This document shows positions 7,426-11,891 of a stretch of 64,000 bases of DNA, one piece after another; the stretch's first letter is position 1, and the number at the start of each line of letters is the position of its first letter. The stretch is taken from the NCBI RefSeq assembly GCF_002854065.1, contig NZ_CP024147.1. One strand, written 5' to 3'. Made by a program: the position numbers and the translations under genes. The notes beneath the pieces were generated by a model. That model made no database searches and was not told the origin of the DNA. It saw nothing but the letters and a program-made list of their open reading frames with translations. This DNA comes from Escherichia coli. Its GTDB lineage: Bacteria > Pseudomonadota > Gammaproteobacteria > Enterobacterales > Enterobacteriaceae.

Positions 7426-8616
7426 TTACAGCACTGCCACAATCGCTTCGCACAGCGGAGCCATATTATCTGGTGTCATCCCGGCCACGTTTACGCGACC
7501 AGAAGCAACAGCATACACGCCAAACTCTCCGCGCAGACGCAGCACTTGTTCTTTTGTCAGGCCACTGAAGGAGAACATGCCGTTCTGTTTGATGATAAAG
7601 CTGAAGTCGCGGTTTGCGCCTTTTTCCTGCAGCGTATTGACGAACAACTGACGCATACGCTGAATACGCTGGCGCATATCAGTCAGCTCTTGTTCCCAAA
7701 TCGCACGTAACGCATCGTTGCTCAGGATGGTGGCAACAACAGAAGCGCCGTGTGCTGGTGGGTTAGAGTAGTTAGCGCGAATCGCCGCTTTCATTTGGCT
7801 GAATGCGCGATCAACGGTTTCACTGTCGGCAGCAACCAGAGTACAAGCGCCAACACGCTCGTTGTACAGGCCAAAGTTTTTAGAGTAGGAACTGGCAACA
7901 ATCAGCTCTTTATGCATAGCCGCGAAAGCGCGCAGTCCTTCAGCATCTTCTTCCAGACCACGGGCAAACCCTTGGTAAGCGAAGTCAAACAGCGGTAACC
8001 AGCCTTTCTCAACGGAGAGTTGTGCCAGTGTCTGCCATTGTTCCAGCGTAGGGTCGATACCGGTTGGGTTATGGCAGCAGCCATGGAACAGCACTACATC
8101 GCCAGCCTGAGCTTCGTTCAGACTGTTAATCAGTGCATCGAAGTCAAGGGTGTGATTTTCCGCGTCATAATAAGCGTATTCACGAACTTCCAGACCTGCA
8201 GAGTTAAAGACGCTCTTATGGTTCGGCCAGCTTGGGTTGCTCACCCACACACGCTTAACGCTGGTATTTTTTGCCAGGAAATCGGCAGCTACGCGTAGTG
8301 CGCCAGTGCCCCCCGGAGTCTGTGCCGTGCGAGCACGTTTGTCATTGATCAGGGCGCTACCTTTACCAAATAGCAGTTCCTGAGTGCAGCGACCAAATTC
8401 AGGGATGCCGTCAATGCCGAGGTAATTTTTGGTGGTTTCATTTTCGAGCAGATACTGTTCAGCCTTTTTCACGCTGGTCAGTACCGGGGTTTTGCCCGTC
8501 TCATCTTTATAGACACCAATCCCGAGGTTAATTTTGCCGGGACGTTCATCGGCACGAAACAGATCGGCCAGGCCCAGAATCGGGTCGGCAGGAGCGGCGG
8601 TAATGTTCTCAAACAT
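7426..8616 (-). CDS. aspC: Aspartate aminotransferase AspC, 396 aa
   Basis: Translation [16 protein letters not shown]... with PLP-lysine motif [14 protein letters not shown]. Confidence 0.96.
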
Positions 8617-8800: not shown

Positions 8801-9889
8801 TTAGAACTGGTAAACGATACCCACAGCAACGGTGTCGTCAGAACCTACGCCCAGTTTGTTGTCAGAATCGATCTGGTTGATGATGTAGTCAACATAGGTG
8901 GACATGTTTTTGTTGAAGTAGTAGGTTGCGCCCACTTCAAAGTAGTTCACCAGATCAACATCACCGATACCTTCTACGTCTTTCGCTTTAGATTTGGTGT
9001 AAGCGATGGACGGACGCAGACCGAAATCGAACTGGTATTGCGCAACTAACAGAACGTCTTGCGTTTTGTTGGCGAAGCCGCTGATGTTTGTAAATTTATT
9101 AGTGATCGGCGTAGCGTTACGGGTTTCACCGTAGTTCGCTGCCAGGTAGATGTTGTTCGCGTCATACTTCAGACCAGTAGCCCACTGTTCAGCTTTTTTA
9201 CCGTTGCCAAGAAGTTGAGCTTCTTGCAGGTTGGTACGGTCAGCTGCACCATAAGCACCAACGATACCAAAGCCTTCGTATTCGTAGCTGATAGAACCGC
9301 CAACACCGTCGCCGTTAGAGCGGCGTGCAGTGTCACGCTCGTTTTTACCCAGGTACTGAACAGCGAAGTTCAGGCCATCAACCAGACCAAAGAAGTTGGA
9401 GTTACGATAGGTAGCAACGCCGCCAACACGACCAACGAAGAAGTCATCGCTGTATGCAGTATCACCACCAAATTCTGGCAGCATATCGGTGTAACCCAGT
9501 GCATCATAAACCACACCGTAGTTACGGCCGTAATCGAAAGAACCAACGTCAGCGTATTTAAGACCCGCGAATGCCAGACGCGTTTTGTTACCAGTTTGAG
9601 CGTCAGCGCCTTCAGAGTTGTTACCCTGGAAGTTATATTCCCACTGACCATAACCGGTCAGATCGGAATTGATTTGAGTTTCCCCTTTAAAACCAAGACG
9701 GGCATAGGTCATGTCGCCATTGCCACCGTAACTGTTTTCACCGTTACCCTTGGAGAAATAATGCAGACCGACAGCTTTACCGTACAGATCTACTTTGTTG
9801 CCATCTTTGTTATAGATTTCTGCAGCGTTTGCAGTACCTGCTACTAACAGAGCAGGGACGATCACTGCCAGAATATTGCGCTTCATCAT
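8801..9889 (-). CDS. ompF: Outer membrane porin OmpF precursor, 362 aa
   Basis: [22 protein letters not shown] signal peptide, porin beta-barrel ending ...VGIVYQF. Confidence 0.96.
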
Positions 9890-10400
9890 TATTTATTACC
9901 CTCATGGTTTTTTTTATGACACCTGCCACTGCCGTCAATAATTTCTGTCAATAAAAATTTACGGAACTATTGATGAGAGTTTGGTGTCTTTATGTGTCTG
10001 CAGGCATCTTTCCATTCAAACTAACGTTTCGCTACCGTGAAAGTGATACAAAGATAAAGATTTAGTTTCAAAAAGAAAAAATATGTAACTAAAAGTAAAA
10101 ATTAAGGAACTTTGTGAACACCGTCATATTTCCATAGAGGCGTGATGATATTTACAGCAATTTTTATCTATTTATATGATTTCCTTATATTTAAATTAAC
10201 TAAACGGAAATTTTGTTTCTGATGGAAACTTTATCGACCTGGCACAAAATCCTCTTTCAGACATCCAGAATGCCAAAAAATAGTATGAAAATTGTGCTAT
10301 CAGCTAAGAAAAAACTAATCCGCAATAAGAATGCGGGTTATTTTTTGTGCGTAAATGTTGCAATGTAATATTCCGTAACAGGATGATCGTTATGGCGGGG
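9890..10400 (-). promoter_or_regulatory. ompF 5' UTR and promoter with upstream OmpR-binding region
   Basis: Reverse complement around 10081-10100 reads TTTACTTTTAGTTACATAT, matching the OmpR-box repeat I recall upstream of ompF; long AT-rich upstream tract. Confidence 0.55.
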
Positions 10401-10449
10401 TTGCAAATAGATTGATTGACTTAACAAACAGATAACTTGACAGAAAGGA

Positions 10450-10478
10450 TAAAAAAGAGCCAGCGGGTGCTGGCTCTT
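10450..10478 (-). terminator. Rho-independent terminator of asnS
   Basis: Hairpin AGAGCCAGC-gggt-GCTGGCTCT followed on the minus strand by a T-run. Confidence 0.5.
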
Positions 10479-10490
10479 ATAGACGCTAAA

Positions 10491-11891
10491 TTAGAAGCTG
10501 GCGTTACGCGGAGTACGTGGGAACGGAATCACATCACGCACGTTTTGCACACCAGTTACGTAAGCAATCAGGCGTTCAAAACCAAGACCGAAACCTGAAT
10601 GCGGAACAGTACCGTAGCGACGCAGATCGCGATACCACCAGTAATCTTCTTTATTCAGGCCCATTTCCAGCATACGCTCGTCCAGCACGTCCAGACGTTC
10701 TTCACGCTGGGAGCCACCAATGATCTCACCGATGCCCGGAGCCAGAACGTCCATAGCCGCAACGGTTTTACCGTCTTCGTTGAGGCGCATATAGAACGCT
10801 TTAATATCTTTCGGATAGTTTTTAACCACTACCGGTGCTTTAAAGTGTTCTTCCGCCAGATAACGCTCATGCTCAGAAGAGAGATCGACGCCCCAGTAAA
10901 CCGGGTTTTCAAACTTCCTGCCGCAGTTTTCGAGAATGGTCACTGCGTCGGTGTAATCCACCTGCGCGAAATCGGCCTCAATGAAGCGTTCCAGACGTGA
11001 AACGGCATCTTTATCTACGCGTTCAGCGAAGAATTTCATGTCGTCAGCGCGTTCTTCGAGAACCGCTTTGAAGACATATTTCAGCATGGCTTCAGCCAGA
11101 CCCGCGATATCGTTCAGGTTAGCAAACGCCACTTCCGGCTCCAGCATCCAGAACTCCGCCAGGTGACGGCTGGTGTTGGAGTTTTCTGCACGGAAAGTCG
11201 GGCCGAAGGTATAAATTTTGGACAATGCGCAAGCGTAGGTTTCACCGTTCAACTGACCAGATACGGTCAGGAAAGACTCTTTACCAAAGAAGTCTTTGTC
11301 GAAATCCACTTTACCCTGATCGTTACGCGGCAGGTTTTCCAGATCCAGCGTAGAAACGCGGAACATTTCGCCAGCACCTTCGGTATCAGACGCAGTAATC
11401 AGTGGCGTTGAAACCCAGAAGAATCCCTGCTCGTTAAAGAAGCGATGCAGCGCCTGCGCCAGCGTATGGCGAACGCGCGCGACGGCACCAATCAGGTTTG
11501 TGCGCGGACGCAGGTGAGCGACTTCACGCAGATACTCAATGCTGTGGCGTTTTGCCGCCATCGGGTAAGTGTCTGGATCTTCAACCCAACCAGCAACTTC
11601 AACCTTGCTGGCCTGAATTTCAAATTGTTGCCCCTGGCCCGGCGACGCCACGACTTTACCCGTCACAATGACCGAGCAACCGGTGGTCAGACGCAGGACG
11701 TCTTCATTGTAATTGGGCAGAGAATTATTGATGACAGCCTGTACAGGATCAAAGCAGGAACCGTCATAAACGGCGAGGAAGGAGATGCCAGCTTTTGAAT
11801 CTCGGCGGGTACGTACCCATCCGCGTACGGTGACTTCGCTGTCAACGGCTACGCGGCCCTGGAGTACGTCGGCTACAGGCACAACGCTCAT
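10491..11891 (-). CDS. asnS: Asparaginyl-tRNA synthetase AsnS, 466 aa
   Basis: Internal ATG (11889-11891) gives [14 protein letters not shown]...; class II aaRS ending ...[10 protein letters not shown]; track start 11936 is 15 codons upstream. Confidence 0.95.

Follow-up and report, generated by a model that had tools for sequence, protein, structure and literature searches.

What is contained in the 601 bp that separate asnS from the porin gene ompF in a non-K-12 strain of Escherichia coli, and does that DNA encode anything beyond the control region of the porin? The chromosomal stretch that we analysed (64,000 nucleotides; hereafter 'the window') carries, at positions 9890-10490, an interval that corresponds exactly to the 601-bp asnS-ompF intergenic spacer of the species. 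It is flanked by two minus-strand genes, ompF (8801-9889; 362 aa) and asnS (10491-11891, with its 3' end at 10491), and aspC (7426-8616, also on the minus strand) lies beyond ompF; the gene order aspC-ompF-asnS-pncB is found in the RefSeq annotation of both K-12 and the nearest genome, NZ_CM128593. The product of 8801-9889 is OmpF, with two substitutions relative to the K-12 protein. An earlier inspection of the letters alone (the 'sequence-only reading') had singled out the interval as AT-rich and as the longest non-coding stretch in the window. Both descriptions held: at 601 bp the spacer tops the gaps of NZ_CM128593 (the second, from hyaA to tRNA-Ser, measures ~425 bp), and its G+C content is 0.28-0.38, versus ~0.5 for the genes on either side.

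The window is collinear with NZ_CM128593 save for a 1,331-bp IS2 insertion (coding), and over 22.5 kb the two differ by four SNPs, of which a single one, at position -47 relative to the ompF transcription start, falls within the spacer (99.8% spacer identity). Alignment of the spacer to that of K-12 revealed 18 differences, corresponding to 97% identity over 601 bp with one 1-bp indel. In every record listed, including the curated annotation of K-12 MG1655, the spacer is without an annotated feature. Because the whole spacer is homologous to an experimentally characterised K-12 region and is shared by 5,424 of the 5,426 complete E. coli genomes, we set aside the possibility of a chance match. 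Judged from its resemblance to K-12, the spacer almost certainly represents the cis-acting control region of ompF together with the 5' leader, and has the asnS terminator as its upstream bound. This upstream region is already known, and the window carries an ordinary copy of it; in that copy we observed the presence, positions and conservation of its elements, their near-identity to those of K-12, and complementarity to MicF.

The sequence-only reading had quoted an OmpR-type repeat, TTTACTTTTAGTTACATAT, upstream of ompF. This motif is located on the minus strand at 10081-10099, 192-210 bp 5' of the ATG, and corresponds to box F1, altered from the K-12 version at one base. Using the F-box coordinates of the K-12 literature, cross-checked indirectly, we assigned F1 to 10080-10099 (-100 to -81; TTTACTTTTAGTTACATATT; 191-210 bp before the ATG), F2 to 10060-10079 (-80 to -61; TTTTCTTTTTGAAACTAAAT) and F3 to 10040-10059 (-60 to -41; CTTTATCTTTGTATCACTTT), all on the minus strand and each identical to K-12 at 19 of 20 positions (57 of 60 jointly). 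The three differences are a G-to-A change at -91 in F1, a C-to-T change at -65 in F2 and a G-to-T change at -47 (position 10046) in F3; the first two are common polymorphisms, both in E. coli and between genera. The distal box F4, whose bounds are put at -380 to -351 (attributed to Huang et al. 1994), occupies 10350-10379 on the minus strand (GTTACGGAATATTACATTGCAACATTTACG), is identical to K-12 at all 30 positions and lies 251-280 bp upstream of F1.

All four boxes aligned to the OmpR sites of K-12 when that comparison was run, in agreement with the complex OmpR-regulated promoter with a distal site that had been proposed for this DNA. The spacing fits the published description of F4 as a low-affinity site ~260 bp upstream of F1-F2-F3 that loops onto F1-F3 (PMC3050692), within a four-site architecture in which the loop blocks transcription at high osmolarity (PMC3050692; PMC3050693; PMC543474). 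The positions reported to be critical for OmpR binding are A4/C5 and A14/C15 in F1, A34/C35 in F2, and the GNNNC motifs (PMC1489923); these AC dinucleotides and motifs are all kept in the window, and the three substitutions in F1-F3 fall outside them. F1-F3 are conserved in 14 Enterobacteriaceae and 16 Enterobacterales, as are the -10 region and the leader, and the sequence CTGTTAC at the edge of F4 is conserved throughout the Enterobacteriaceae.

A scan of the window with an OmpR matrix that was trained on just three ompC boxes, and was too weak for F3 and F4, ranked F1 and F2 at 96 and 166 of 127,962 positions (top 0.15%) and left F3 and F4 undetected, which indicates that sequence alone would have missed these weak sites. 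The best match of the matrix within the spacer was to a conserved block around -180 (described below), which we do not read as evidence of OmpR binding there. A literature search with the exact F1 20-mer gave no match.

The numbering used here depends on the length of the ompF 5' untranslated leader, which we take from the K-12 literature to be 110 nt; the leader would then occupy 9890-9999 on the minus strand, with +1 at 9999. Counting from F3, the hexamer AAAGAT (10006-10011, minus strand) falls at -12 to -7, and on the basis of its sequence and this start site we assign it as the -10 element of the weak, activator-dependent ompF promoter. The -10 region, GGAAAGATGCC, is invariant in the Enterobacteriaceae. 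As a second cross-check of the start site, the F1-type box of Y. pestis, mapped to -99 to -80 by primer extension (PMC3050692), aligns with F1 of the window. The ompF promoter was not detected in a sigma-70 consensus scan, as expected of a promoter that depends on an activator. The leader itself is nearly invariant across 15 Enterobacterales and matches that of K-12 at every base between +58 and the ATG, the sole difference being located at +57. It contains a conserved long-range helix between GACACC (+12 to +17) and GGUGUC (+76 to +81), which leaves the MicF target unpaired and agrees with the published leader 'signature' (PMC1489923).

The leader had also been named as the expected target of MicF, and duplex calculations substantiated this: the 5' end of K-12 MicF pairs across both the Shine-Dalgarno sequence and the start codon, in the best-scoring tile of the window. 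The target, identical in sequence to that of K-12, occupies 9879-9906 on the minus strand (+94 to +121) and spans the Shine-Dalgarno GAGG (9900-9903) and the AUG (9887-9889). The duplex between MicF nucleotides 1-33 and leader positions +94 to +121 was calculated at -27.1 kcal/mol, ranking first among 8,526 60-nt tiles drawn from the two strands of the window (tile mean -9.4, sd 3.5), with the second-best tile close at -26.4 kcal/mol. The MicF sequence was that of the annotated K-12 gene, and micF itself lies outside the window. Duplexes calculated with full-length MicF were uninformative (random tiles scored better), and the 33-nt 5' segment was used in their place. A K-12 Term-seq 3' end at 986,970 on the minus strand corresponds to window position 9877 (+123), on the border of this duplex (PMC7815308 supplement).

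If the mechanism described in the K-12 literature is transferred to the window by sequence identity, the locus would be expected to operate as follows. At low osmolarity, a small amount of OmpR-P would bind cooperatively to F1-F2(-F3) (-100 to -41), and the OmpR-P bound at F1-F3 would bring RNA polymerase to a promoter that is otherwise too weak to fire. When osmolarity is high, OmpR-P would be more plentiful and would also occupy the weak F4 site (-380 to -351); the AT-rich, bendable DNA would loop, OmpR bound at F4 would interact with OmpR bound at F1-F3, and transcription would be turned off. IHF and CRP (the latter at a probable site from -129 to -114) would modulate ompF transcription, while MicF, by pairing across the ribosome-binding site and start codon (+94 to +121), would block translation. 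From the identity with K-12, we infer that the same factors are bound and the same responses elicited in the source strain.

The probable CRP site is located on the plus strand at 10113-10128 (-129 to -114, centred at -121.5; TGTGAACACCGTCATA) and displays one mismatch to TGTGA-N6-TCACA. It is made up of a TCACA block with TATGA six bases upstream, and the TCACA half lies within an invariant block, TCACAAAGTTCC (10106-10117, minus strand; -118 to -107), which is nearly invariant even across 16 Enterobacterales. The number of CRP-consensus matches in the window is not significant alone (four sites, versus 2.0 expected). The box is orthologous, in reverse complement, to the CRP box of Y. pestis ompF at -131 to -109, which has been DNase-I-footprinted (PMC3050693), and a Genomic SELEX study of K-12 in 2011 recovered ompF among known CRP targets (PMC3105977). 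A 2007 paper based on RegulonDB lists IHF, Lrp, EnvY and OmpR as regulators of ompF and states that no direct control by CRP had been reported (PMC1905917). On the strength of the Y. pestis orthology and the Genomic SELEX listing, the conserved box at 10113-10128 is the probable location of the documented CRP-ompF interaction, its exact place being assigned by comparison.

A second block, at 10168-10194 on the minus strand (-195 to -169; TTAAATATAAGGAAATCATATAAATAG), is conserved across the Enterobacterales at a constant distance of ~50 nt upstream of the CRP-like box, and in most genera it takes the form of a near-palindrome, TATAnGAAnTTCnTATA. We regard this block as a tentative candidate for an IHF site; by eye it agrees with the IHF consensus at seven of nine positions, and it gave no match when one mismatch or fewer was allowed. 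An exact scan with the IHF consensus found no site in the spacer, and the only spacer match at one mismatch or fewer, at 10405-10417, is outside the conserved blocks. That match was set aside as evidence for or against IHF, as it is created by a SNP in the window and the nearest genome (H1) and is absent from the other alleles compared. Comparison by eye of the conserved distal blocks with marbox, Fur, RcsAB and Lrp motifs was unconvincing (the best was 11 of 15 positions of the Lrp consensus), and a paper on ompF in Dickeya contains nothing on upstream blocks.

Phylogenetic footprinting of AsnS-encoding loci, sampled at one genome per species, indicated that the synteny of asnS with a porin gene is maintained across the Enterobacterales, with a spacer of ~600 bp in the Enterobacteriaceae versus ~300 bp in Erwinia, Pantoea, Pectobacterium, Serratia and Yersinia. 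The conserved blocks of the Enterobacteriaceae comprise the leader, the -10 region, F1-F3, TCACAAAGTTCC, the block at -195 to -169, parts of a hairpin that we term hairpin 2 (see below) and CTGTTAC, as well as two further blocks at about -255 to -275 and -286 to -301. Order-wide, TCACAAAGTTCC and the block at -195 to -169 persist at fixed spacing. In the genera with short spacers, which have neither F4 nor the distal ~290 bp, the -180 block and the CRP-like box flank the asnS terminator. It is from this position of the terminator, between the two order-wide blocks, that the distal ~290 bp with F4 look like an addition specific to the Enterobacteriaceae. An F4-containing half confined to this family is consistent with the report that Y. 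pestis has no F4 and does not repress OmpF at high osmolarity (PMC3050692).

Three known porin control regions provide points of reference. That of Y. pestis ompF resembles the window in its tandem F1-F3 boxes at an equal distance from the start, its CRP-type box just 5' of F1 and its conserved leader (PMC3050692, PMC3050693), and differs in its asnS-porin gap of ~300 bp, which is without F4 and the distal 290 bp. K-12 ompF shares with the window the same locus and neighbours, the same asnS terminator and the F1-F4 architecture; it is distinguished by the single changes that the window carries in each of F1 (-91), F2 (-65) and F3 (-47), and by a hairpin 2 that is far more stable. E. coli ompC likewise contains three tandem 20-bp OmpR boxes (C1-C3) upstream of a weak promoter, but it is without a distal repressing box, responds to osmolarity in the opposite manner, has micF as a divergent gene, and is located at another locus, outside the window.

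The sequence-only reading had followed A/T tracts as far as the asnS terminator, and an intrinsic terminator is indeed found at that end of the spacer, at 10455-10478 on the minus strand, with the form AAGAGCCAGC-ACCC-GCTGGCTCTT followed by a U-run. As scanned, it comprises 10 pairs and then TTTTAT (-17.7 kcal/mol, z -5.5). Its structure is conserved across genera: the CCAGC...GCTGG portion is retained, and the flanking stem bases co-vary as pairs when the genera are compared by eye. The consensus scan reported three terminator-like sites in the spacer, namely this terminator and hairpin 2 on both strands. Hairpin 2 (10316-10340, both strands) lies on the promoter-proximal side of F4. Folding of its two strands gave -21.0 and -19.7 kcal/mol for the K-12 allele (z about -6.2) and much weaker values, -10.1 and -14.5 kcal/mol, for that of the window; in CUVM53 and LT883142 each strand came to about -3 kcal/mol, and in E. 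albertii the values are -3.8 kcal/mol for the ompF-sense strand and -11.0 kcal/mol for the other. No compensatory changes were found among the sampled alleles. As to its role, hairpin 2 could be a relic, or it could act as an auxiliary terminator or as an insulator.

Could the spacer also encode a small RNA? The candidate would be a plus-strand transcript of ~160 nt, running from a promoter-like sequence at 10151-10180 to hairpin 2 (10316-10346); an alternative would be an RNA transcribed from the minus strand and bounded by the asnS terminator and hairpin 2. The promoter-like sequence (TTTACA-18-TATGAT) scores 10 of 12, but the count of promoter-like sites in the spacer is within chance (two, versus 3.1 expected) and the -35 element, by eye, is not conserved outside Escherichia in the aligned Enterobacteriaceae. 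The hairpin is terminator-like on both strands and very stable in K-12, but certain E. coli alleles reach just about -3 kcal/mol, uncompensated within the sample. A weak plus-strand Term-seq 3' end of K-12 at 987,644, inside the 3' end of asnS, indicates some plus-strand transcription nearby. The same K-12 data contain no 3' end in the spacer, and hence none at the hairpin on either strand, although this is a weak negative in a table that also misses the terminator of asnS itself (PMC7815308 supplement). A search of the spacer against Rfam produced nothing near threshold, and the curated annotation of K-12 has no ncRNA there. Taken together, we consider a small RNA in this spacer very improbable.

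The other rival reading is a small protein. The sequence-only reading had seen no convincing open reading frame in the spacer, and that assessment stands after comparison: of the 13 spacer ORFs with a length of 15 aa or more, none came through intact when other Escherichia and Citrobacter sequences were compared. Eleven of the 13 are broken in both Citrobacter sequences, one more is without an intact counterpart in the compared genomes, and a 16-aa ORF with a TTG start that overlies F2/F3 is intact in Citrobacter and broken in E. albertii. No Shine-Dalgarno sequence precedes the spacer ORFs within 18 nt of their starts. The most plausible candidates would be a 51-aa plus-strand ORF (10213-10368) and a 26-aa ORF (10142-10222). 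Such ORFs exist mechanically, and several are intact in the sampled E. coli alleles, but they begin with TTG or GTG; the 51-aa ORF is prematurely stopped in K-12 and CUVM53, both named ORFs are frameshifted, start-less or interrupted in Citrobacter, the region carries indels across genera, and the annotation of K-12, verified small proteins included, has none in the spacer. We give this reading almost no credence. The spacer holds no supported small RNA or small protein, and nothing observed contradicts its interpretation as the control region and leader of ompF.

The G-to-T change at -47 in F3 had gone unnoticed in the sequence-only reading. At this column (window position 10046) all 13 other Enterobacteriaceae sequences carry G, and an exact-match search found T in seven of 5,250 E. 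coli genomes. Together with the window, the carriers represent three haplotypes that differ from one another at 18-19 spacer positions: that of the window strain, that of a clone from Alberta (five carriers), and that of a pig/France pair. Divergence of this extent indicates that the change has recurred independently. The two members of the Alberta clone that were examined, CT01 and CX12, also carry a C-to-T change at -107, in the invariant CRP-side block. SNPs in the asnS-ompF spacer have been used to classify 'naturalized meat-plant' strains of E. coli (PMC5007776; PMC11169474). The designation 'CX20 meat plant strain' and the Alberta origin suggest that the Alberta clone probably belongs to this 'naturalized' meat-plant/wastewater lineage; CT01, CX12 and AH02 are not listed by name in the supplements of the 'naturalized E. 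coli' paper.

These observations raise the question of whether the allele of the source strain is regulated differently from the textbook case, with altered basal OmpF or weakened osmotic control, perhaps under selection. The T at -47 is the sole spacer difference from the nearest genome (and one of just four SNPs in 22.5 kb), it occupies a column that is G in the 13 other sequences of the family and T in just seven of 5,250 E. coli genomes, and it has arisen on three haplotypes. Five of its carriers form the Alberta clone, whose CX names match those of 'naturalized meat-plant' strains. The substitution also converts GTAGCA of the F3b half-site to GTATCA, the sequence found in ompC box C3b (GTATCAC in F3b, versus GTATCAT in C3b). 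On the other hand, T is the natural base in the orthologues of Photorhabdus and Arsenophonus, as well as in a Photorhabdus paralogue (PMC1489923); the substitution leaves the GNNNC motif intact; the matrix derived from ompC scores G and T equally; and a change that arose three times in more than 5,000 genomes can be neutral. We view a regulatory effect of the substitution as unlikely, and its stronger form as slightly less likely again; in that form, selection would have favoured the recurrent -47T as a cis-regulatory change that adjusts OmpF expression by making F3 resemble ompC C3, with changed activation or osmotic repression as the outcome. The quantitative osmoregulation of the source strain may differ from that of K-12, given the substitution in F3.

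The region upstream of ompF is among the most thoroughly dissected of bacterial promoters, and its identification here changes nothing in that picture. Its main use is as a positive control, in that a reading of raw sequence correctly identified the locus, the OmpR box, the architecture with a distal site and the MicF target. Were the stronger proposal for -47T true, one promoter base would be linked to niche adaptation, for example to exposure to disinfectant, antibiotic, phage or colicin. A phenotype of the change, if it has one, would make it a concise case of outer-membrane permeability adapted through a cis-regulatory base. The comparative value of the locus lies in the division that the footprint suggests, with the F4-containing half appearing to be specific to the family, and the CRP-type box and the block at -169 to -195 conserved across the order.

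Within the 601-bp spacer between asnS and ompF (window 9890-10490), a rare base lies in box F3, one of the proximal OmpR boxes of ompF. At window position 10046 (−47 relative to the ompF transcription start) the sequence carries a T in place of the G found in 13 other Enterobacteriaceae sequences. This G-to-T change is the only difference between the spacer and that of the nearest genome (NZ_CM128593). Among the complete genomes of E. coli the T is rare, occurring in only 7 of 5,250 and on three unrelated spacer haplotypes. Owing to the substitution, the F3b half-site of the window resembles the C3b half-site of the ompC promoter.

Comparison with the same nearest genome also revealed a 1,331-bp insertion elsewhere in the window (22588-23918), which encodes the IS2 proteins TnpA and TnpB (NCBIfam, E-values of 4e-83 and 1e-219). 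The element has inserted into elfC, a fimbrial usher gene, and splits it; in the nearest genome elfC already carries a frameshift annotation.

Upstream of the OmpR boxes, window 10106-10128 holds a CRP-type site (TATGA-N6-TCACA, with one mismatch; 10113-10128), centred at −121.5. It is formed by the block TCACAAAGTTCC, which is invariant across the Enterobacterales, and is the orthologue of the CRP box footprinted in Y. pestis ompF. The Alberta E. coli strains CT01 and CX12 carry a C-to-T change at −107 within this block. Approximately 50 nucleotides further upstream, a 27-bp block (10168-10194) is likewise kept across the Enterobacterales, taking the form of the near-palindrome TATAnGAAnTTCnTATA in most genera; IHF is a speculative candidate to bind it. 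In genera with short spacers, such as Yersinia and Serratia, the asnS terminator sits between this block and the CRP-like box.

Two additional blocks, kept within the Enterobacteriaceae, lie in the loop region between F4 (the distal OmpR box) and the promoter: GGCATTCTGGATGTCTGAAAG at 10254-10274 and ATAGCACAATTTTCAT at 10285-10300 (both on the ompF-sense strand), the latter matching the Lrp consensus at 11 of 15 positions by eye. The same region contains a second hairpin (10316-10340) that is terminator-like on both strands, and within which five positions that vary in E. coli are clustered; its stability is about −20 kcal/mol in K-12 versus about −3 kcal/mol in some E. coli alleles. Published K-12 Term-seq data (PMC7815308) include no 3′ end at this hairpin; they place an ompF 3′ end 13 nucleotides inside the coding sequence, right where the MicF duplex ends (K-12 986,970, minus strand; window 9877), and a weak 3′ end lying antisense to the terminal part of asnS (987,644, plus strand; window ∼10550).

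At the level of RNA families, the window contains a PyrD leader upstream of pyrD (Rfam RF02373, 97.9 bits; 28943-29016) and, as the only other match, a tRNA-Ser (55883-55967).

A search for the spacer across 5,426 E. coli genomes returned no match in two and a partial match (less than 80% covered) in eight more, including NZ_OZ121091, where the match is restricted to the asnS-proximal 31%. These missing and partial sequence matches suggest that the ompF promoter is occasionally disrupted or deleted in natural isolates.
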